Source: Patescibacteria group bacterium
GTDB lineage: Bacteria > Patescibacteriota > Patescibacteriia > UBA9934 > GWF2-40-263
Direction: 5' to 3'
Assembly (NCBI GenBank): GCA_041661745.1
Contig: JBAZTR010000005.1
Location: 3,283-67,282, forward strand
DNA: 64,000 nt
Within the stretch, counting starts at the first letter, position 1, and every line of letters begins with the position of its first letter. Of the stretch, positions 1,755-46,033 are shown piece by piece. Under the pieces are notes generated by a model, which searched no databases, had not been told where the DNA came from, and worked only from the letters and a program-made list of their open reading frames with translations. The position numbers and the translations under genes are program-made.

Positions 1755-3160
1755 TCTGTCACACTTTGGTAAAACTTCCCTGCCCTAAACAAACAAGTTT
1801 CATCAAAAGGCTTGGCCATTAACTGCAAACCAATTGGTAAGCCTTCGTCAAAGCCACAAGGCAAGGAAAGAGCCGGAATTCCCGCTAAATTAGCGGAAAC
1901 TGTGTATATATCCGAAAGATACATGGCTAAAGGATCGTTAAACTTATCCCCAATGTCCCAAGCCACGGTCGGCGAGGTTGGTGTGATGATAACATCAACG
2001 TGTTTAAAAGCTTCCTCAAAATCACGGCGAATCAATTCACGCACACGTAAGGCTTTTTTGTAGTAAGCATCAGAGTAACCTTTTGAGAGAGCAAAACTTC
2101 CTAACATAATGCGGCGCTTGGTTTCCGCACCAAAACCTTCGCCCCGGGCTTTTAGATAAGTTGTTAAAAGATTTTCTCCGTCAACGGCGTGACCAAAACG
2201 AATCCCGTCCATACGTGCCAAGTTTGAACTGACTTCACATGGCATAACGATGTAATAAGCAGCAATGGCGTACTCGGTGTGCGGCAAAGAAATTTCTTTA
2301 ACCTCGGCCCCGTTATTTCGTAAAACTTCGATTGCTTCGAGAACCGCTTTTTTAACTTCAACATCCATGCCTTTAACAAAATATTCTTTTGGAACACCGA
2401 CTCGCAGACCCTTGATGTCGTTCGGAATTAATTCGGGAATAACGACGTCTGTTTCAACGGCCGTGGCGTCCTTATCATCATTGCCGGCAATCACGGAAAA
2501 AACTTCGGCCACGTCTTCAACAGTGTGAGCACAGACACCAATTTGATCTAGCGAAGAGCCCAAAGCTATGGCCCCGTAACGACTAACGCGGCCGTAGGTG
2601 GGCTTTAAGCCCACCACGCCGCATAATGCGGCGGGCTGCCGGACCGAGCCGCCCGTATCGGTTCCCAGGGCGGCCGGCACAAAGCCGGCAGCCACGGCCG
2701 CGATTGATCCGCCAGACGAGCCGCCAGGCGTTTTTTTAATATTCCAAGGATTTTTGGTGGGAAAAAATGCTGAATTTTCAGTCGATGAACCCATGGCAAA
2801 TTCGTCCATGTTGGTTTCGCCGATAATTATGGCGCCAGCCTCACGTAATCTTTTAATAACCGTGGCGTCATAAACCGCTTCATATTCTTGGAGCATTTTA
2901 GAACCGGCCGTGGCTTTACGACCAGCTACAAGAATATTATTTTTAACAGCAATGGGAATGCCGGCCAAGCGTCCTTTTTTATTTTTTATATCATGAGCTT
3001 CGGCTAACGCCTCGTCATTAGCCACATGCAAAAAAGCATTGATCTCGTGATCGTGTTTTTTTATTCGTTCAAGTGAATTTTCTATAACCGCTTCGGCTGA
3101 AACTTTTTTATCAGCCAAAAGTTTTTTTATTTCACTAATCGTTAAAAAAGATGTGTCCAT
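1727..3160 (-). CDS. gatA: Glu-tRNA(Gln)/Asp-tRNA(Asn) amidotransferase subunit A
   Basis: 477 aa with the amidase signature GGSSGGSIAAVAAG. The conserved N-terminus (TISEIKKLL...) sits next to gatC. Confidence 0.9.
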   Translation of the reverse strand: MDTSFLTISEIKKLLADKKVSAEAVIENSLERIKKHDHEINAFLHVANDEALAEAHDIKNKKGRLAGIPIAVKNNILVAGRKATAGSKMLQEYEAVYDATVIKRLREAGAIIIGETNMDEFAMGSSTENSAFFPTKNPWNIKKTPGGSSGGSIAAVAAGFVPAALGTDTGGSVRQPAALCGVVGLKPTYGRVSRYGAIALGSSLDQIGVCAHTVEDVAEVFSVIAGNDDKDATAVETDVVIPELIPNDIKGLRVGVPKEYFVKGMDVEVKKAVLEAIEVLRNNGAEVKEISLPHTEYAIAAYYIVMPCEVSSNLARMDGIRFGHAVDGENLLTTYLKARGEGFGAETKRRIMLGSFALSKGYSDAYYKKALRVRELIRRDFEEAFKHVDVIITPTSPTVAWDIGDKFNDPLAMYLSDIYTVSANLAGIPALSLPCGFDEGLPIGLQLMAKPFDETCLFRAGKFYQSVTDWHKKQPKM

Positions 3161-33912: not shown

Positions 33913-36900
33913 TTAACTACAACCCGAGGTTGCCCCGCAATTTAAGCATTTGTAACACGAGGCATTACGCACCATAATCGAACCGCAGGTGGGACAGGCT
34001 GGGGCATCAGACTGGTTATCAAAAGTTGAGGTCAAGCTCGCTTTTTTTTCGCCGGTAAACAAAGTCGGCTGTGGTTCCTCTTTACTACTGTCGGCCAGAG
34101 CAGGAACAGCAATGACAGTTTCTTCGACGCCATTATTTTCCACATTCATGACCCCGACAGCTCGTTGTTCTTCCGGTGTCATAAACTTCATGGCCATCCA
34201 GCGGAAAATGTAATCAACTAATGATTTGGCAATACGGATATTTGGGTTGTTGGTATAACCGGAAGGTTCAAAACGCATATGAACAAACCTGTTGACCAGT
34301 GACTGTAACGGCACACCATACTGCAAACCAACAGAAACTGAGGTGGCAAAGGCATCGGCCAAGCCACTAATGACCGAACCTTCTTTAGACATGGTTATAA
34401 ACATTTCACCCGGCGTGCCATCATCATATAAACCGACAGTGAGATAACCTTTGTGCGTACCCACTTGGAATTTATGAGTAATAGCTTTGCGCTCATCTGG
34501 CAAGCGACGACGCAACGGTTTGAAGGTTTCGTTGCGGCCATCGCCAACAGCCACCTCGGCTTTTTTGGCAACTTTCTTTGATTGGTCTTTATCAAGCGAA
34601 GTGGTTAAAGCCTGCTGACGTTTGGAACCGTCACGATAAACAGCCACGGCTTTAATGCCCATCTTCCAGGCTTCCACATAAACTTTTTCAATATCCTCAA
34701 CCGTGGCGCTGTTGGGCAAGTTAACGGTTTTGGAAATGGCGCCTGACAAAAACGGCTGAACCGCGGCCATCATGCGCAGGTGCCCCATGTACTGAATTGA
34801 ACGTGTGCCGTTAGCTGGTTTGAAAGCGCAATCAAAAACCGACAAATGTTCTTCTTTAAAATGCGGCGCGCCTTCAATGGTATCTTTTTCATTGATGTAA
34901 GCAAGGATATCTTTCTTTTCATCTTCGGTGTAGCCAAGGCGAGTTAAGGCTTCGGGAACGGTTTTGTTTACAATCTTAATCATGCCGCCGCCAACCAACC
35001 ACTTGTATTTAACCAAGGCAATGTCCGGTTCAACACCGGTGGTGTCGCAGTCCATTAAGAAAGCAATGGTACCAGTGGGGGCCAAAAGAGAAATTTGCGA
35101 GTTCCTAAAACCAAAGCGCGCGCCGCGTTCAACCACTTCACGCCAGGCTTCGCGGGCTTCGGAAAGCATTTGGCCAGAAACACCCTGGGCAGGAAGCTTA
35201 TCAGTTTCGTCACGATGACGACGCATGACATCAAGCATTGATTCGGCATTTTCTTGATACGAAATAAACGGCCCTTTCTTTTCGGCAATACGCGTTGACT
35301 GCGCGTAGCACACGCCGCTTTGGAGCGAAGTAATGGCCGCGGCCAAATTGCGCCCATTGTCGGAATCATAAGCCAAACCAAAACTCATGAGTAGCGCTCC
35401 GAGGTTGGCGTACCCAATACCCAAAGGACGGAAAATTAAACTGTTTTCTTCAATGGCCGGCGTTGGATAACTGGAATTGCCGACAATAATTTCCATGGCC
35501 GTAATCATGATTTCGTTGGCTTGTTTAAAAGCCGCCAGATCAAATTCAGATAAGCCGTTAACTTCTTTACGGAAGCGCATTAGGTTTAATGAAGACAAAT
35601 TGCAAGCCGAGTCATCAAGAAACATAAACTCCGAGCAAGGATTGGAAGCATTAATGCGACCGCTCTTTTTACAAGTGTGCCATTTGTTGGATTCGGTGTC
35701 GTATTGCAAACCAGGGTCACCGCATTGCCAAGCCGCTTCGCAGATTTTTTTCATGAGATCGGCGGCTTTAAAAGAAGTTGAAGGATTGCCGCTAATAACT
35801 TCTTTTGTAACCCAATCACCGCCGTTAATTATGGCGTTCATGAAATCATCGTTAACCCGCACTGAGTTGTTGGCGTTTTGAAAATAAATGGAGGAGTAAG
35901 CCGAACCATCAATGGAACCATCATACCCGGCGTCCATTAAAGCCCAGGCTTTCTTTTCTTCCTCGGCTTTGCAGATGATAAATTCTTCAATGTCAGGATG
36001 ATCGACGTTTAAAACCACCATTTTGGCGGCCCGACGAGTTTTGCCGCCACTCTTGATAACCCCGGCAAACGAGTCCAGTCCTTTCATGAAAGAGACAGGG
36101 CCAGAAGCACGACCATTGGAACCACCCAAATATTCTTTAGAGGAACGCAAAGTAGAAAAATTAGTCCCAGTGCCAGAACCACCTTTAAACAGCATACCCT
36201 CGGTAACCGCCAAGTTGAGAATGGAACGCATGTCGTCCTGCACGGAATTAATGAAACAAGCCGAACACTGCGGATTGTTTACCACTCCGACATTAAACCA
36301 CACCGGCGAATTAAACGCGGCCATTTGATTAATCAAAATATGCGTTAATTCGTGTTCAAAAACCGTGCCATCATCAGCGGTTTGAAAATAACCATCCTGT
36401 CGGCCCCAGCCGGCAATTGTTTTGGCCACGCGATCAATTAACTGGCGAGCCGATTGTTCGCGATCGGCCTGACCAACCTTACCGCGAAAATATTTTGAAG
36501 CCATGATGTTGGTGGCGGTTTGCGACCAAAATTCAGGCACCTCAACACCGGTTTGTTCAAAAACCACTTTACCCTTTTCGTTATTAATTCGAGCATCACG
36601 CAATTCCCACTTTATTTTTTCGTAAGGATGAACCCCGGCTTCGGTAAAATATCGTTTAATTTGCAAACCATGACCATAAACCGCTTCGCCGGCCTGGTGT
36701 GCACGATGTAGCGAACCAGCCCGGAAAGACATGTATTTTTTGGCAGCATGAATTAAATTATGATCAATCAGAGTCAGGTTAATCATTTCCCGAACATCCA
36801 TGGTGGTTGGCTGGCCATCGCCCTCAAAAGCCCGCTGTAGACGCGAAACCGCATGGCGAGTAATCTTGTCGATTAACTTCATGTCTTTAACCCCCGCTTC

Positions 36901-37071
36901 CACCATGGCCGCGCCGACGGAACGTTTAATTTTTTCGGCCTGAAACGGTTCGGTAATACCACTACGCTTTGTAACGATCTTTAACGAAGTAACAAAAGAC
37001 CAGGCAGCGTCGGAAACGCCGTCTGGCGATGAAACCGCTACGACTTTTGGGCCAAAGGAGGAATCGGACAT
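33913..37071 (-). CDS. nrdJ: Adenosylcobalamin-dependent ribonucleoside-triphosphate/diphosphate reductase (class II, NrdJ) with an N-terminal ATP cone
   Basis: ATP cone (VTKRSGITEPFQAEKIKRSV), the active-site region NPCSEFMFLDDSACNL and a C-terminal CxxC...CxxC zinc ribbon. The track ORF begins at a TTG at 37146; the ATG candidates are at 37071 and 37062. Confidence 0.85.
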   Translation of the reverse strand: MSDSSFGPKVVAVSSPDGVSDAAWSFVTSLKIVTKRSGITEPFQAEKIKRSVGAAMVEAGVKDMKLIDKITRHAVSRLQRAFEGDGQPTTMDVREMINLTLIDHNLIHAAKKYMSFRAGSLHRAHQAGEAVYGHGLQIKRYFTEAGVHPYEKIKWELRDARINNEKGKVVFEQTGVEVPEFWSQTATNIMASKYFRGKVGQADREQSARQLIDRVAKTIAGWGRQDGYFQTADDGTVFEHELTHILINQMAAFNSPVWFNVGVVNNPQCSACFINSVQDDMRSILNLAVTEGMLFKGGSGTGTNFSTLRSSKEYLGGSNGRASGPVSFMKGLDSFAGVIKSGGKTRRAAKMVVLNVDHPDIEEFIICKAEEEKKAWALMDAGYDGSIDGSAYSSIYFQNANNSVRVNDDFMNAIINGGDWVTKEVISGNPSTSFKAADLMKKICEAAWQCGDPGLQYDTESNKWHTCKKSGRINASNPCSEFMFLDDSACNLSSLNLMRFRKEVNGLSEFDLAAFKQANEIMITAMEIIVGNSSYPTPAIEENSLIFRPLGIGYANLGALLMSFGLAYDSDNGRNLAAAITSLQSGVCYAQSTRIAEKKGPFISYQENAESMLDVMRRHRDETDKLPAQGVSGQMLSEAREAWREVVERGARFGFRNSQISLLAPTGTIAFLMDCDTTGVEPDIALVKYKWLVGGGMIKIVNKTVPEALTRLGYTEDEKKDILAYINEKDTIEGAPHFKEEHLSVFDCAFKPANGTRSIQYMGHLRMMAAVQPFLSGAISKTVNLPNSATVEDIEKVYVEAWKMGIKAVAVYRDGSKRQQALTTSLDKDQSKKVAKKAEVAVGDGRNETFKPLRRRLPDERKAITHKFQVGTHKGYLTVGLYDDGTPGEMFITMSKEGSVISGLADAFATSVSVGLQYGVPLQSLVNRFVHMRFEPSGYTNNPNIRIAKSLVDYIFRWMAMKFMTPEEQRAVGVMNVENNGVEETVIAVPALADSSKEEPQPTLFTGEKKASLTSTFDNQSDAPACPTCGSIMVRNASCYKCLNCGATSGCS

Positions 37072-37306
37072 AAGAAGCATGGGGTTAAGGGCCAGTCCTT
37101 TTTTTAGGACAAGAAAAGACAATCCGCTGGGATTATCTTTTCGCAAAGACGCCCGTTATTGACGGTCTTTGCGCCCACTGAAACGAATCCGAAATGGTCC
37201 TCCTTTCCATTTCGTGGTGCTTATATTTTATGTCTTCCGAGGGGGTGTGTCAAAGACAAAGTTGTCCACAGAATTTATAAAAAAACGACACTTATTTTTG
37301 GCTTTG

Positions 37307-37404
37307 TTTAGCTTGTAGTCTGCAGAAATTAGCTTGTAGGATTTTGGAACAAAAAAACTTGTAACTTTGAATCCACCTACAAGCTACAAGCTACTTCCTA
37401 CAAC
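37307..37404. repeat. Palindromic intergenic element, copy B (AGCTTGTAG family)
   Basis: TTTAGCTTGTAG...TAGCTTGTAGG...CCTACAAGCTACAAGCTACTTCCTACAA. Its 3' arm is identical over ~29 nt to copy A at 12584-12612. Confidence 0.6.
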
Positions 37405-37980
37405 CTAAAAAGGCATTGTAAAATTTATCGCTGTCTTTTCCGTCTTCAAACGAAAGTCAACCGGAATCGCCTTACGCTCCCCGGAACGATCTTCGTAGGC
37501 CAAAGCTTTATATTTTAAGCCGTATTCATAAACAGCTTTGGTCACCCGCACGTCGTCGAGACAATATTGTTTTACTTTGTCCTTCTCCCCCTTTTTCCAC
37601 CACTCAATGGCCTGCAAACCATGGCCGGTCTTCCCCTGCCCGACTGTTGCCATTGCGACATGATCAAGCTTTAAACGAAAACCAAGAGCTTTTTGAATTT
37701 CTTCCAAAATATCCAAATTGGGAAAAGCTAAAAAATCTCCGGGATAATAATTATTCATGATCGGCAAATCAAAACCCTTGCTATTGTAACCGATTAAACG
37801 GTCGGCTCGTTCCAGGCGCGGCCATAATTCACCAAACTCGTGTTCCTCGAAAGCGCGATACTCGTCGTTTTCGTAAAAATATGCCCCGATCACGGAAATT
37901 TTGAATTCCGAGCGATCGCGGCTGTTAATATCATCAAAGGTATTTTTTGTTTCAATATCGAAGACTACTTCTTTGGACAT
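37405..37980 (-). CDS. DEDD-type 3'-5' exonuclease (RNase H-like fold, PolB-exonuclease-like)
   Basis: Exo I VVFDIETKN, Exo II YNSKGFDLP and a C-terminal Y...D motif. Confidence 0.55.
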   Translation of the reverse strand: MSKEVVFDIETKNTFDDINSRDRSEFKISVIGAYFYENDEYRAFEEHEFGELWPRLERADRLIGYNSKGFDLPIMNNYYPGDFLAFPNLDILEEIQKALGFRLKLDHVAMATVGQGKTGHGLQAIEWWKKGEKDKVKQYCLDDVRVTKAVYEYGLKYKALAYEDRSGERKAIPVDFRLKTEKTAINFTMPF

Positions 37981-37983
37981 ATG

Positions 37984-38466
37984 TTACGAAACTACGAAAG
38001 ACTACTAAACTACGAAAGTTTTTGGTCGACGTTAATTATTTTTGGTTTTAAAATTCTTTGGTAAGTCACACCTTTTTCTGAAAAACGGATTAACAAACCT
38101 AATTCTGTTTTAGTATTAGCCAAATATTGCTTAATTTGTTCAAAATCTGATGTTTTAAATTGTCCAGAAGATTTTATTTCAACCACGACCGTATCTTCCA
38201 CTATAAAATCCAAAATATATTTTCCAACCACCACTTCTTGATATTTAAGAGGAATACTTACCTCTCGTTTAAATTTCAAGTCCCTCTTTCCAAAAGCAAC
38301 CATCAAGGCTTTTTGTAAATATCTTTCTTTGTGTTGACCGCCGATCTCTTTAAAAACATCGAAACATGCGCCAACTATTTCATAGCTTAAATCCGGTTGT
38401 ATAAGGTCATCTCTTTTAAGCTTCGACACAATTTCGTAGTTTCGTATTTTTTCGTTGTTTCGTAAC
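37984..38466. mobile_element. Miniature element: GxxExxY-family gene bounded by ~35-nt terminal inverted repeats
   Basis: Left end GTTACGAAACTACGAAAGACTACTAAACTACGAAAG versus the reverse complement of the right end, GTTACGAAACAACGAAAAAATACGAAACTACGAAAAT. Confidence 0.5.
38010..38429 (-). CDS. GxxExxY-family protein (PD-(D/E)xK-like small selfish-element protein)
   Basis: EIVGACFDVFKEIGGQHKERYLQKAL...LDFIVEDTVVVEIKS...GLLIRF fits the GxxExxY family pattern. The motif is a GxxxExY variant. Confidence 0.65.
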   Translation of the reverse strand: MSKLKRDDLIQPDLSYEIVGACFDVFKEIGGQHKERYLQKALMVAFGKRDLKFKREVSIPLKYQEVVVGKYILDFIVEDTVVVEIKSSGQFKTSDFEQIKQYLANTKTELGLLIRFSEKGVTYQRILKPKIINVDQKLS

Positions 38467-38468
38467 CC

Positions 38469-39035
38469 CTAAGGGATTAAATAAAGATACAGTTTTTCTC
38501 CCCGGGCTTCATCGGTCTTAATTAATGGCAAGGACGGGTATTTAAAGGTTCGGGAAATGACACGTGTGCCAGAAGGATAATATTTTTTTAGAAGCGGTTC
38601 AAGCCTTTGCTGAGTTTCTGGAAAAAGATAAGTGGCAATAACATCAGCCTTGGGCAATTCGGCCTTAAAAAAATTTCCACCACGTAAATCAATCTTGTCG
38701 GACAAACCGGCTATTTTGGCACGAAGTAAACCGAGCCAACGGACGCCCGGATGATGTTCGTAACCAATTCCTTTGGCCGCATTAAAATTTTTAACGGCCG
38801 TTAAAAGAAGTGAGCCGTCGCCGCAACCAAAATCAACCACGGTTTCGCCCGGCTTCAATTCGGCCATTTCAAACATCTTTTTACCAATTTTTCCGCGGGT
38901 TGGCACCCAAGGCACACTGACCAAACCGGAAATAAGCAAGGTAACTAAAAAAGCCAAGGACAAAAGAAGTAAAAATTGTATAAAAAGAATTAATAACACT
39001 AAGAATGAATACATAAGATTATTTTTCGTTACCAA
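38469..39035 (-). CDS. Membrane-anchored class I SAM-dependent methyltransferase (paralog of 32188-32691)
   Basis: An N-terminal TM helix, then VPWVPT and motif I FGCGDGSL. It is collinear with the other methyltransferase (APWVPT...LGCGDARL). Confidence 0.55.
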   Translation of the reverse strand: MVTKNNLMYSFLVLLILFIQFLLLLSLAFLVTLLISGLVSVPWVPTRGKIGKKMFEMAELKPGETVVDFGCGDGSLLLTAVKNFNAAKGIGYEHHPGVRWLGLLRAKIAGLSDKIDLRGGNFFKAELPKADVIATYLFPETQQRLEPLLKKYYPSGTRVISRTFKYPSLPLIKTDEARGEKLYLYLIP

Positions 39036-40002
39036 AAATTAACTTTCCGGCTGTCCACAAATCAGTACGCCCCAATTCCTTTTCGGCATACCACCACTCA
39101 ACTCCCCACAAATACGCTTCGGAAAACCCGGCATATTTGGCAAAGGAAATATTGTCAGCCAAATCTTCAGAAGTAAAAGCCTCGGCTCGTTCTTCGCCCG
39201 ACAATTCGTTAATCGGTTCGGAAAACCACGGTTCAGCCTGAAGTTCGGAAATAATAATTTCTTTTGTAAACAAACCGGCAACCATGGCTCGAAAACGATA
39301 AACCAATGGTTTCAATGGATAAGGCATAAGGCCGGTAGCCGGACTATAACTGACGCGATACATTGAAATACCCAAAACGTCAGAAATTTTGGCTGAAGGA
39401 ATCCAAGGATCCAGTTCCCCGCTAACCGTTAGCATAATTGGCTTGTTATCAAGCGATTTGACCAAGGAAATTTCTTTATCCAATAATTCCGCGCTGGGTG
39501 ACGGACAAATTCCAAAAGGAAAAAACGGTTCGTTTTCCACTTGCCAACGTTCTACGGCCGGACTGTCTTTATATCTTTCCACAACTGTCTTTTCCATGTT
39601 CAATACTGCCGCCTCAGTTTCAGAACCAACCAGCCCTTCGGCCCAATCGGGGGTATAACACTCTGGCCAACGTGGCACCTTATTACCAATAACTAAAATT
39701 AATTCAACGCCGCGTTTTTCGGCTTCGTTCACAAAAAAATCATTGAGTGACCAATCGTATTGTCCTTTTTCGGTTTCGATTTGCGACCAATAAATAGGCA
39801 GGCGGATTTTTCTCACCCCCAAATCTTCAAGAACAGCAATATAAGCTTCCCGCGGATCAAGACCTAAACCATAGGCGTAGGCCGCACTAAAAGTTACTCC
39901 TAGTTCCGGCTGTTTTGGTTCGAAAAAAAACTTTATTGAACAAAAAATCGCCCCGACCAAGCAAAAAAACAAAACCGCCGTGACGATAATTCGTTTCGTC
40001 AT
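39019..40002 (-). CDS. Glycoside hydrolase, GH5-like (beta/alpha)8 barrel, secreted or membrane-anchored
   Basis: A signal/TM N-terminus, an (R)LPIYW motif, and ENEP (catalytic acid) in the characteristic GH5 context. Confidence 0.5.
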   Translation of the reverse strand: MTKRIIVTAVLFFCLVGAIFCSIKFFFEPKQPELGVTFSAAYAYGLGLDPREAYIAVLEDLGVRKIRLPIYWSQIETEKGQYDWSLNDFFVNEAEKRGVELILVIGNKVPRWPECYTPDWAEGLVGSETEAAVLNMEKTVVERYKDSPAVERWQVENEPFFPFGICPSPSAELLDKEISLVKSLDNKPIMLTVSGELDPWIPSAKISDVLGISMYRVSYSPATGLMPYPLKPLVYRFRAMVAGLFTKEIIISELQAEPWFSEPINELSGEERAEAFTSEDLADNISFAKYAGFSEAYLWGVEWWYAEKELGRTDLWTAGKLIFGNEK

Positions 40003-41573
40003 ATTTCTTCTTTCTTTTCTCGTAAAAATGCCAACCAACCTTCAATAAGTTTTATGGCCGCTTTAAACGGCGCTTCAATAATAAAATCTAAAAAGAAAAG
40101 AAGAATGTTTACGCGCGGGGCGCGCATACTAATCCAACGACCGGCCCGAACAATCGGCAAAAAGAAAATGTCAAAAATGGCGCTGCCCACCCCACCCGAA
40201 CCCTCGACCATAACCAGCTCGCGACGACTGCCGCGAATTCGGAAGCCAAAAAAGGTGACCAGAGACAAAAAGAACAAAAAGAAAAAAATGGAAACCGCAT
40301 TAAAACCAAAGGATTGGAGGAAATATGAGATTACGCCGACGAACAACAAAAACATTAGAGCGTACAAAATACCAAAAATTATGCCCATGCCACCCTTGGC
40401 CCACGGTCGCCGCAAAGAAAACTTTAAAGGCTTGGGTGAATCAAAACCAAGCACCGAGCGCAACTCGCCAATTAAAAGTTCAGTGTTCTTTTTTTCCGGA
40501 ATATTAATGGTCATGCTGATAATAACCAACAACATCGGATGGAATAAAATATTGGTTAAAAGTGGCGTCCACCCGGCATCTTTGGCAACCAAACGATCAT
40601 ACGGCAATTCAACTAGTAAAGCTAAAATTGATTTTGTTAGTAAAATGAAAACAACGGCCCGCAAAATACTGCGACCGATGCGGGTACGAAAATAATCATA
40701 ACGCTTGGCCGCAGCTTCGGCCACGACCGCGCTAAAACGTGCCTCGTCGGCCAAAACCTCGTCAATTTCATCAATATACTTTTCGGCCACATCGCGGAAA
40801 ATTTTAAAAGCCACGGAACGTTGGCGAACAAAACGGAATAAACGTTCACTGGCCGGATGTGACAATTGTTTTTCAACCGCTTCAATAACTTGAGGAAGTC
40901 GATTGGCCACGCGATTAACCAACTCTGGGGTAGGATTTTTAGACCATTCTGGAAAATACAGCGAAAAAACGCGATACCTTAAGGTGGCTAAATTTGATTT
41001 TAAAACAGCTCGGTGAACAGCAATGTACAGCTGTAATTCCTGATCCTCTGATTTAACCACGCCGGTTGACCAAGTCATGCGGCCTTTCAAATTTTGGTAA
41101 GCCAAACTAACCAAAGCTTCATCAACCGTAGGCTGACAGAGTTTGTATTCAATTTCCGTGGAAAGAACATCAAGAAGCCACAAGTTAAAACGTTGTGTAT
41201 CACGACCAGCCTCTTCGGCCTGCGCGAAAAGCGGCTGAAATTTACGAAAGACACTGGCCACTTCGTCCAAAATTTTTGTTGAAACAAAATTATTGGGAAA
41301 ATAACGGGCCCAAATAAGTTCGTGAATCAAATCCGAAGATAACGCCACCACATCTTCCTCGCCAAAACGTCTTTTTAAAATACGACGAATAGCATTGCGT
41401 CTAAGCAAATGCTCTTCATCGTATTCCAAAGCATTTCTAACATTTTCGTAAACACTGGCGGCCGCGGAAACCGTGTCGCTAACCGCAATGACTTCACCCT
41501 CGGGTTTAGTCTCTTTGGCGATTTTAGCTTCGCGCACCGTGGCAAAAAAAGCACGTAAATATGTGTCTTCCAT
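39999..41573 (-). CDS. Hypothetical protein with a C-terminal polytopic membrane domain (524 aa)
   Basis: A long soluble N-terminal region, then ~4-5 TM helices. No recognisable catalytic motif. Confidence 0.4.
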   Translation of the reverse strand: MEDTYLRAFFATVREAKIAKETKPEGEVIAVSDTVSAAASVYENVRNALEYDEEHLLRRNAIRRILKRRFGEEDVVALSSDLIHELIWARYFPNNFVSTKILDEVASVFRKFQPLFAQAEEAGRDTQRFNLWLLDVLSTEIEYKLCQPTVDEALVSLAYQNLKGRMTWSTGVVKSEDQELQLYIAVHRAVLKSNLATLRYRVFSLYFPEWSKNPTPELVNRVANRLPQVIEAVEKQLSHPASERLFRFVRQRSVAFKIFRDVAEKYIDEIDEVLADEARFSAVVAEAAAKRYDYFRTRIGRSILRAVVFILLTKSILALLVELPYDRLVAKDAGWTPLLTNILFHPMLLVIISMTINIPEKKNTELLIGELRSVLGFDSPKPLKFSLRRPWAKGGMGIIFGILYALMFLLFVGVISYFLQSFGFNAVSIFFFLFFLSLVTFFGFRIRGSRRELVMVEGSGGVGSAIFDIFFLPIVRAGRWISMRAPRVNILLFFLDFIIEAPFKAAIKLIEGWLAFLREKKEEI

Positions 41574-45502: not shown

Positions 45503-45570
45503 TGTTCAATAGCAATCCTCCACCCCAACCCTCCCCCAATAGGGGAGGGAGAACCAGTTTCAGAGGAAGG
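45503..45570. repeat. GC hairpin repeat, left flank of DUF559 gene 2 (direct copy of 45943-46000)
   Basis: AATCCTCCACCCCAACCCTCCCCCAATAGGGGAGGGAGAACCAGTTTCAGA matches the right-flank copy at about 90%. Confidence 0.55.
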
Positions 45571-45576
45571 ACTAAA

Positions 45577-45954
45577 CTAAAGATTTTCCTTTATTTTCTT
45601 GACTACTGCTTCTGGATTATCCAAAACTTCTTCGTTCTTAAAGTGCAGAATCTTAAAACCCAAACCTTTTAAGTCTTCACTTCGGATTAAATCGTATTCG
45701 GCAATATCTTTCTTTAAATGAATCTTTCCATCTAATTCAATGACTAATTTTTTGCTTCGACAACAAAAATCAACAATATATCTGCCAATACCAACTTGCC
45801 GATAAAAAATAGCCCCCAGCTCTTTACGACGCAAATACTGCCAAAGAACAACTTCGGCGTCGGTTTGGTTATTTCTTAAAACTCTCCGAGTTTCTTTAAG
45901 CTTACTAGAATTAAAAACCTGTTTGTCGGACATAATATTAATCCTCCTCCCCAT
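45577..45954 (-). CDS. DUF559 endonuclease-domain protein (paralog of 28996-29418)
   Basis: AEVVLWQYLRRKELGAIFYRQVGIGRYIVDFCCRSKKLVIELDGKIH...GFKILHF is collinear with the first DUF559 protein. Confidence 0.75.
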   Translation of the reverse strand: MGRRINIMSDKQVFNSSKLKETRRVLRNNQTDAEVVLWQYLRRKELGAIFYRQVGIGRYIVDFCCRSKKLVIELDGKIHLKKDIAEYDLIRSEDLKGLGFKILHFKNEEVLDNPEAVVKKIKENL

Positions 45955-46033
45955 CCCTCCCCCAATGGGGGAGGGAGAGCTGATTTCAGACGCCGGTCTT
46001 CCCCTCCCTTTGGGAGGGGATAAGAGAGGAAGG
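45943..46033. repeat. GC hairpin repeat, right flank of DUF559 gene 2, plus a second TCTTCCCCTCCC-TTT-GGGAGGGGA hairpin
   Basis: AATCCTCCTCCCCATCCCTCCCCCAATGGGGGAGGGAGAGCTGATTTCAGA is followed by CGGTCTTCCCCTCCCTTTGGGAGGGGATAAGAG. Confidence 0.55.

Follow-up and report, generated by a model that had tools for sequence, protein, structure and literature searches.

The 64,000-nucleotide (nt) stretch of contig JBAZTR010000005.1 analyzed here, hereafter the window, contains a minus-strand operon of Candidatus Uhrbacteria (candidate phyla radiation [CPR]/Patescibacteria) in which a small open reading frame (ORF) of the GxxExxY family is enclosed by an inverted repeat; the assignment to Uhrbacteria follows the names carried by homologues of the exonuclease. 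The three genes concerned are codirectional, in the order methyltransferase (38469-39035; 188 amino acids [aa]), GxxExxY ORF (38010-38429; 139 aa), and exonuclease (37405-37980; 191 aa, RNase H-fold/PolB-exo-like). An earlier reading of the sequence alone (the original prediction) had described the same location and had called the methyltransferase a paralog, which is plausible given a second methyltransferase-like gene nearby. The whole cassette, consisting of a 5' arm, the nuclease ORF, and a 3' arm, occupies 484 bp (37983-38466, minus strand), with its ends set by comparison of two sites. The upstream (5') arm (38432-38466, minus strand) reads GTTACGAAAC AACGAAAAAA TACGAAAC TACGAAA in gene sense, an array of four 8-10-nt units whose best period is 8. 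The downstream (3') arm (37983-38017, minus strand) is TTTCGTAGTTTAGTAGTCTTTCGTAGTTTCGTAAC in gene sense and contains the TAG stop of the ORF, which starts with GTG. The two arms form an inverted repeat of 35 nt, complementary at 31 of 35 positions (89%) and separated by 414 nt in the repeat search, and both are made of tandem TACGAAA(C) units (repeat families D4 and D5, spacing 18). The fit into the operon is tight. At the upstream junction (38467-38471), the TAG stop of the methyltransferase (38469-38471) is followed by GG and then the element, with the outer end of the 5' arm 2 nt past this stop and its inner end 2 nt before the GTG; at the downstream junction (37978-37982), the 3' arm is followed by AT and then by the exonuclease ATG (37978-37980), thus ending 2 nt short of it.

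The inverted repeat flanking the nuclease gene is real and far beyond chance. As a flank inverted-repeat (flank-IR) score, we took the best inverted repeat across both flanks of each ORF of 100-220 aa. The cassette scored 25, first among 63 window ORFs (mean 9.2, SD 2.7), and aligning the flanks recovered the ~35-nt terminal inverted repeats that had been predicted around the 139-aa gene, as 35-nt arms that are imperfect here and perfect (35/35) in the related contigs L002 and L003. A/T-rich, internally repetitive arms do inflate chance matching, and a 15-mer search with three mismatches is not significant by itself; yet a score of 25 against a null mean of 9.2, the perfect repeat in a relative, its retention at two different genomic sites, and the recurrence of the pattern throughout the family all speak against a chance match or low-complexity artifact. 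We regard that explanation as having a negligible probability, already refuted by the comparative data. The cassette also differs in base composition, with a GC content of 32.4% versus 45.3% for the window (13 points lower). These observations support the view that it is a discrete, compositionally foreign unit delimited by the inverted repeat.

The encoded protein belongs to the predicted GxxExxY/PD-(D/E)xK-like family, matching both PF13366 PDDEXK_3 (E 6.5e-28, 97.9 bits) and TIGR04256 GxxExxY (E 6e-27, 94.3 bits) above their curated cut-offs (22 and 35 bits, respectively). Its version of the eponymous motif is GGQHKERY, in which the Glu aligns with the family-invariant E35 and the Tyr lies one position off the usual G-x-x-E-x-x-Y. 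Alignments of 13 and 78 sequences show little or no variation at E35, D74, E84, K86, and Q98, and the predicted catalytic set is E...D...ExK. An AlphaFold2 model built on the 78-sequence alignment has a confident PD-(D/E)XK core (predicted local distance difference test 92, predicted template modeling score 0.83). Its top Foldseek match is the Cas4 protein SSO0001 (4ic1), a weak one (E 3e-4, TM 0.52), followed by further weak matches to lambda-exonuclease-like enzymes including LHK-Exo, to MGME1, to tRNA-splicing endonucleases, and to Hjc. The gene shows a ratio of nonsynonymous to synonymous substitution (dN/dS) of 0.12-0.16 and is under purifying selection. Other searches with the protein were uninformative: a sequence search for a solved structure returned only spurious ketol-acid reductoisomerase matches, PADLOC gave only weak Cas4-like similarity (E 7.5e-5), leading us to dismiss membership in a defense system, and PHROGs gave one weak match to a family without an assigned function. 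GxxExxY proteins form a large family; a single-sequence query retrieved no fewer than 4,327 clusters at 50% identity. A 2012 survey of the PD-(D/E)XK superfamily listed the function of PF13366 as "Unknown" and remarked on multiple transfers (PMC3424549). In the searchable literature we found no description of an arm-ORF-arm architecture for GxxExxY/PF13366, although a remark in some database entry is possible.

The decisive result for mobility, at the level of sequence, comes from the nearest nonorthologous proteins, P0006 (70% aa identity; contigs L176, L177, and L178) and P0007 (61%; L172-L175). Both are encoded in an operon of the order secY-adk-map-[GxxExxY]-ruvX-recO, with the cassette at the map-ruvX junction and with arms near-identical to those of the window; in L176/177/178 these are GTTACGAAACAACGAAATTGTTACGAAACTACGAAA and its complement, with a flank-IR score of 31. 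When the window is aligned with L176, homology sets in precisely at GTTACGAAAC and stops at GTTTCGTAAC, after which comes A(T)T-ATG; outside these limits, neither flank is related between the two loci. A second operon junction thus carries these arms and termini, with homology bounded by the repeat ends. The two sites share one geometry: a stop codon, 1-3 nt, the element, AT(T), and the ATG of the next gene. The CGTAAC-AT(T)-ATG junction of the window recurs in L002, L172, and L176, and its 5' arm is kept in L002, L005, and L176; the copies in L172-L175 are 5'-truncated and retain the 3' arm. Other junctions are occupied elsewhere. In L024, another Uhrbacteria genome, a cassette (52% aa identity) lies between a membrane-protein gene and gatB, with termini TGTTACGAAT...ATTCGTAACA. 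L018, a contig like Uhrbacteria GW2011_GWE2_45_35, carries an ORF-less foldback twice (830-1090 and 2627-3000, 1.7 kb apart), as palindromes of tandem CGTAGAA(A/T) units in opposite orientation and in different intergenic spacers; for the second L018 palindrome, the flanking genes overlap in the window, where this site is therefore empty. Within the A/T-rich arms at L005:3434-3463 and L018:2700-2780 lie nested mini-hairpins rich in GC (GCCCTTCGAAGCCC and TCGGCCTGTTGGCC, for example), which suggests secondary insertions or expansions. Taken together, these copies at differing junctions are a classical mobile-element signature, though without a target-site duplication. Comparing the window and map-ruvX copies shows that the mobile unit terminates precisely in the inverted repeats, and the predicted label of terminal inverted repeats holds in this positional sense; its transposon sense is not established (no target-site duplication, no transposase). 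We consider it probable, at about 60%, that the segment 37983-38466 represents a copy of a mobile cassette, small and palindromic (foldback-type), carrying an intact PD-(D/E)XK nuclease gene.

The methyltransferase-exonuclease junction exists in several states among relatives. The cassette and the same gene order are found in contigs L002/L003/L004 and L005. The original prediction had proposed looking for an empty site joining the two genes directly, and such sites occur: in L039/L040 (exonuclease 85% identical to the window) the junction is TGA-T-ATG, with a 1-nt spacer, and in L022/L023 (72%) there is a 35-nt spacer with no repeat. In L020 (86%) the junction holds a 169-bp ORF-less palindrome (RNA fold of -68 kcal/mol, z = -7.8), and in L018/L019 (89%) a ~370-bp hairpin of tandem CGTAGAA(A/T) units (-172 kcal/mol, z = -16.4). 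These alleles show a discrete insertion in an otherwise 1-nt stop/start junction, together with ORF-less palindrome versions at the same site in sister lineages, one of them present twice in one genome. No ORF remnants were found in the ORF-less palindromes, and the termini of the L020 palindrome match the L024 element, not the window cassette. In L037/L038, another Uhrbacteria lineage (exonuclease 89% identical), the junction (window 37981-38468) is occupied by an unrelated gene of 357-368 aa, and since this gene also sits there, the junction resembles an insertion hot spot. The L037/L038 gene (L037:1388-2494) has no Pfam match, and the junction there reads TAA-T-ATG.

The histories of element and host do not coincide. 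The host tree, built from methyltransferase and exonuclease, joins L039, whose site is empty, to L020 (bootstrap 82) and L002 to L005 (bootstrap 90) as sisters; the closest cassette pair is instead the window and L002, whose nucleases have a dS of 0.52 versus 1.2-3.1 for flanking genes, and the element tree is discordant with the host tree. The junction states and the discordant trees call for either precise loss or independent gains at one junction, and they give a hint of lateral exchange. The flanking genes of the cassette-bearing genomes (window, L002, and L005) are only 77-80% identical in nt sequence, and the insertion must therefore be old and vertically inherited; the comparison shows vertical inheritance over genus-scale time, with no recent hop. 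The same neighborhood has a second selfish-element polymorphism: the class II ribonucleotide reductase of L018/L019 (4904-6576; 1469 aa) has intein-splicing and LAGLIDADG_3 domain matches, whereas its orthologue in the window (33913-37146; 1055-1077 aa) has neither.

Long residence raises the alternative that the ORF is a resident host gene with a regulatory RNA stem, acting either by hok-like fold-back inhibition or as a cistron-separating RNase III site, and that presence and absence reflect gene loss. Indeed, synteny is kept in three genomes whose flanking genes are ~78% identical, the nuclease is under purifying selection and single-copy in the window, target-site duplications are not seen, and the arms, which pair in both the minimum free energy and the centroid structure of the predicted RNA (z = -3.1), abut both start codons. 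A resident gene would not, however, be expected to share its arms and termini with another operon junction where homology ends precisely at those termini, nor to leave an empty allele with a spacer of merely 1 nt. It also fits poorly with the different arm type at the same site in L020, the duplicated ORF-less palindromes of L018, a composition 13 GC points under that of the host, an element tree at odds with the host tree, and arms that carry no wobble-pair signature. We consider this alternative quite unlikely. The claim that the unit is mobile rather than resident was largely supported, by the foreign composition, the empty sites, and the same termini at map-ruvX, with the reservation that the insertion studied here is an old, vertically inherited one.

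The anatomy of the window cassette is not peculiar to it. Flank-IR scores were computed for 21 GxxExxY loci taken from metagenomes, GTDB genomes, and plasmids, with 28-88% identity and from at least seven phyla (the sampled lineages being Uhrbacteria, Bacteroidota, Planctomycetota, Verrucomicrobiota, Gemmatimonadota, Spirochaetota, and others); these include orthologous pairs, so that independent cases number nearer 15, and one contributing scan, of 9 loci, used a single peptide pattern. The median flank-IR score was 19 for the GxxExxY loci versus 8.7 for 36 control ORFs from the same loci (Mann-Whitney p = 4e-9), with 17 of the 21 above the control 95th percentile and 15 above the control maximum. 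The arms differ in sequence and share a build, namely two to four units in tandem that repeat at a best period of 7-10 nt; the units observed are TACGAAA, CACGAAT, CGCGAAT, CGCGGAT, CACAGAG(G/A), CAGGATT, and CACTAAA. ACGAA is present in 10 of 15 5' arms, often as an ACGAA(T/A) core. The 5'-arm units read on the sense strand of the ORF in all analyzed arms except L013, and in several loci the mismatches between arms sit in the spacers between unit cores. The ORF is codirectional with the upstream gene in ~17 of 19 loci, and the arms usually abut the stop and start codons of the neighbors. Arm-ORF-arm is thereby shown to be the rule for the GxxExxY family across phyla. The predicted frequent association of the family with tRNA and rRNA introns was not supported: there was no Rfam rRNA, tRNA, or intron match in 18 GxxExxY loci or in window 36000-40500, and an intron, rRNA, or tRNA context was rejected, the sole Rfam hit being IS009 in the window region at E 0.75, far below gathering.

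Composite layouts, rather than plain arm-ORF-arm ones, were seen in L009, L013, L025, L028, and L034, where the same units make up compact ORF-less hairpins located next to the GxxExxY ORF, instead of or besides enclosing it (L009:1090-1225, L028:2915-3040, L025:2385-2440 and 2860-3040, L013:3402-3480, and L034:1930-2000); their order is a 5'-type arm, a short loop, and a 3'-type arm. The window itself holds a second small gene of the PD-(D/E)XK superfamily (region 45529-45975), a DUF559/Vsr-like ORF of 125 aa (45577-45954, minus strand; PF04480, E 2e-33) between two direct ~38-nt hairpin-containing repeats, CTCCCTCCCC[C/T]ATTGGGGGAGGG[A/T]TGGGG..GGAGGATT, with a CCCCTCCC/GGGAGGGG hairpin just upstream of it. 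Its flank-IR score of 17 is the second highest in the window.

A further alternative is that the palindrome alone is the mobile unit, served like REP, miniature inverted-repeat transposable element (MITE), or foldback sequences by a trans-acting factor, with the nuclease as a passenger, a frequent cargo of such repeats or a settler beside them. This would account for the ORF-less palindromes, which persist and multiply without an ORF remnant, for the hairpins that lie beside the ORF rather than around it, and for an abundance of arm units in viruses. Arrays of three CACGAAT units set 9-10 nt apart were present in at least 120 IMG/VR stretches (L041-L160) versus 11 for a reversed-heptamer control, an excess of at least 10-fold, and because these contigs lack a GxxExxY gene, the arm units may be read by something besides the GxxExxY protein. 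About 63% of the viral arrays lie outside long ORFs, several contigs have four to eight arrays in a single orientation, and only 26 of 143 arrays have an inverted partner. The genes enclosed by such inverted pairs are unrelated, and we discarded the pairs as evidence of alternative cargo; neither did the arrays qualify as start-codon elements, with 31% forward, 28% reverse, and 24% at random positions, which is no real enrichment. Against a mere passenger role stand the arms carried by 17 of the 21 family members, which span at least seven phyla, the agreement of unit type with protein lineage, the movement of window-type arms to a new site together with the ORF, and the lack of any other candidate mobilizing gene beside the ORF-less copies in the DNA examined. 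We hold a passenger nuclease to be possible, if doubtful.

Several results weigh against a mobile, nuclease-bearing cassette. The additional copies that the original prediction had suggested looking for did not appear: neither a pattern search with three mismatches nor tblastn and blastn self-searches found a second copy of the arms or of the nuclease gene in the 64-kb window. The element flanks in the window, L002, L005, L020, L024, L176, and L018 showed no target-site duplication. The orthologous copies in three relatives give no sign of recent movement, and the situation named as refuting in the original prediction, a gene conserved in place between divergent flanks, is found in part, given these three relatives with flanking genes 77-80% identical. 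Four of the 21 family loci have no clear inverted repeat, and none of the CACGAAT-array viral stretches has a GxxExxY ORF. The structural matches of the nuclease are generic to the PD-(D/E)XK fold, weak, and uninformative on substrate; moreover, a PD-(D/E)XK nuclease alone cannot join DNA, and a self-sufficient transposition chemistry is not evident. Finally, mismatches between the arms show no sense-strand G.U preference (11 G.U versus 13 A.C), and because there is no such excess, selection on the stem at the RNA level is without demonstration.

How a mobile cassette of this kind would be expressed and moved can be outlined as follows. We found no sigma-70-like promoter upstream of the nuclease ORF on its strand, and with no promoter-like site and a codirectional orientation, the cassette would owe its transcription to read-through of the host operon. 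In the resulting RNA, the arms would pair into a duplex of ~31-35 bp abutting the start codons of the nuclease and of the next gene, and this duplex could hold down nuclease translation as soon as the 3' arm has been transcribed, in a genome that makes scant use of Shine-Dalgarno sequences. Throughout the window, GGAG, GAGG, or AGGA occurs 5-20 nt upstream of the first ATG in only six of 37 ORFs of at least 200 aa, and upstream regions are A/T-rich; since so few long genes possess a Shine-Dalgarno sequence, we dismissed its absence as a clue to the cassette. By analogy with 23S rRNA intervening sequences, the duplex may also be processed by an RNase III-type enzyme. As DNA, the arms may act as cis-acting ends whose tandem units are recognized by a nuclease multimer; breaks made by the nuclease would then, aided by host repair, start the copying or movement of the cassette into stop/start junctions, and ORF-less palindromes would be nonautonomous derivatives. 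This route of movement is one that we infer, and DNA cutting by a nuclease multimer is its weakest part, because joining activity and target-site duplications are both lacking and the wobble-pair count gives no signal that could separate RNA-level from DNA-level selection.

Cassettes of this kind are widespread and apparently undescribed, and the window copy is an ordinary, long-resident member. Arm-ORF-arm cassettes with empty and ORF-less alleles and recurring termini offer concrete, testable biology for the GxxExxY family. They also link three poorly explained phenomena, namely the intervening sequences of rRNA (a puzzle since about 1990), tandem heptamers beside start codons, and small palindromic intergenic repeats, and they indicate that in streamlined CPR genomes selfish DNA is able to persist in essential operons at single-nucleotide gene junctions. 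A bolder extension, which we offer as a speculation and would not expect to hold, is that GxxExxY cassettes, ORF-less foldbacks, and rRNA intervening sequences form one superfamily of palindromic elements of ~0.45-0.55 kb that target transcribed spacers, preferentially stop/start junctions, and are moved by a multimeric PD-(D/E)XK nuclease or another cargo protein that reads the arm units (tandem, 8-10 nt). If this extension were true, no autonomous mobile DNA element known in bacteria would be smaller, and the large uncharacterized PF13366 family would gain a function.

Among known systems, the cassette resembles REPINs (hairpin-forming doublets of repetitive extragenic palindromic [REP] sequences) with their RAYT genes, MITEs, and foldback elements in having a single-copy gene between inverted copies of a short repeat that also occurs in ORF-less hairpin doublets, and in having ORF-less forms that can be multicopy and lie in intergenic spacers of operons; the long arms of tandem subrepeats in L018 recall eukaryotic foldback elements. 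It differs from REPIN-RAYT and MITE systems in its protein, which has a PD-(D/E)XK fold rather than being an HUH/Y1 or DDE transposase (its sole ORF is the 139-aa nuclease, and the cassette holds no recognized DDE, HUH, serine, or tyrosine transposase), and in the absence of target-site duplications and of dispersal within the 64-kb window. Its arms, moreover, are arrays of 8-10-nt units, not a REP palindrome.

Homing endonuclease genes, both intron-encoded and free-standing, include a PD-(D/E)XK enzyme, I-Ssp6803I. The cassette shares with them a small nuclease gene whose presence varies among relatives at one precisely defined, conserved position (the window, L002, and L005 have it there; L039/L040 and L022/L023 do not), a history discordant with that of the host, and reliance on host expression and, presumably, host repair. 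Unlike strict homing genes, it also occurs at unrelated sites (map-ruvX and before gatB), and it lacks an intron or intein context, the Rfam search being negative; no solved homing endonuclease matched the cassette nuclease in sequence. We know of no homing endonuclease gene that carries terminal inverted repeat arrays like those of the cassette.

The intergenic TAACTGA tandem heptamers of Beggiatoaceae, cyanobacteria, and Bacteroidetes abut start codons (PMC4679880). Like the 5' arm, they consist of two to six forward tandem short units that end one to a few nt before a start codon, lie inside operons, and spread horizontally without a known vehicle; they differ in unit sequence and in being direct repeats only, with no inverted partner or enclosed nuclease gene described.

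The closest known counterpart is the 23S rRNA intervening sequence (IVS) with an ORF, as in Leptospira and in Coxiella burnetii, where the IVS is 428 nt long, has three tandem GACAGAT heptamers before the ORF, and is cut by RNase III at the first repeat (PMC4990558). The two are of one size class (428 nt in Coxiella versus 484 nt here), with terminal inverted repeats that form a long stem and an ORF of 120-140 aa in the loop. Short tandem repeats of variable copy number stand directly before the ORF start (three GACAGAT units in Coxiella, four of the TACGAAAC type here). Both lack a transposase and ride a host transcript, here by predicted read-through, and both are sporadically distributed, with ORF-less versions in related taxa (here L018 and L020). 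They differ in site, an operon spacer in mRNA here versus helix 25 or 45 of 23S rRNA, and in protein, a PD-(D/E)XK nuclease (PF13366) here versus the four-helix-bundle S23p (PF05635), no gene for which was seen on browsing 50 kb of an annotated Bernardetia replicon. RNase III excision has been demonstrated for the IVS and would apply here by analogy, and the ORF is under purifying selection here whereas that of Coxiella is decaying. The cassette is therefore not to be filed under IVS, REPIN-RAYT/MITE/foldback elements, or homing genes, because the defining tests of each fail. It resembles REPIN-RAYT, MITE, and foldback systems as well, and in function it would seem most like an rRNA intervening sequence relocated to an mRNA operon.

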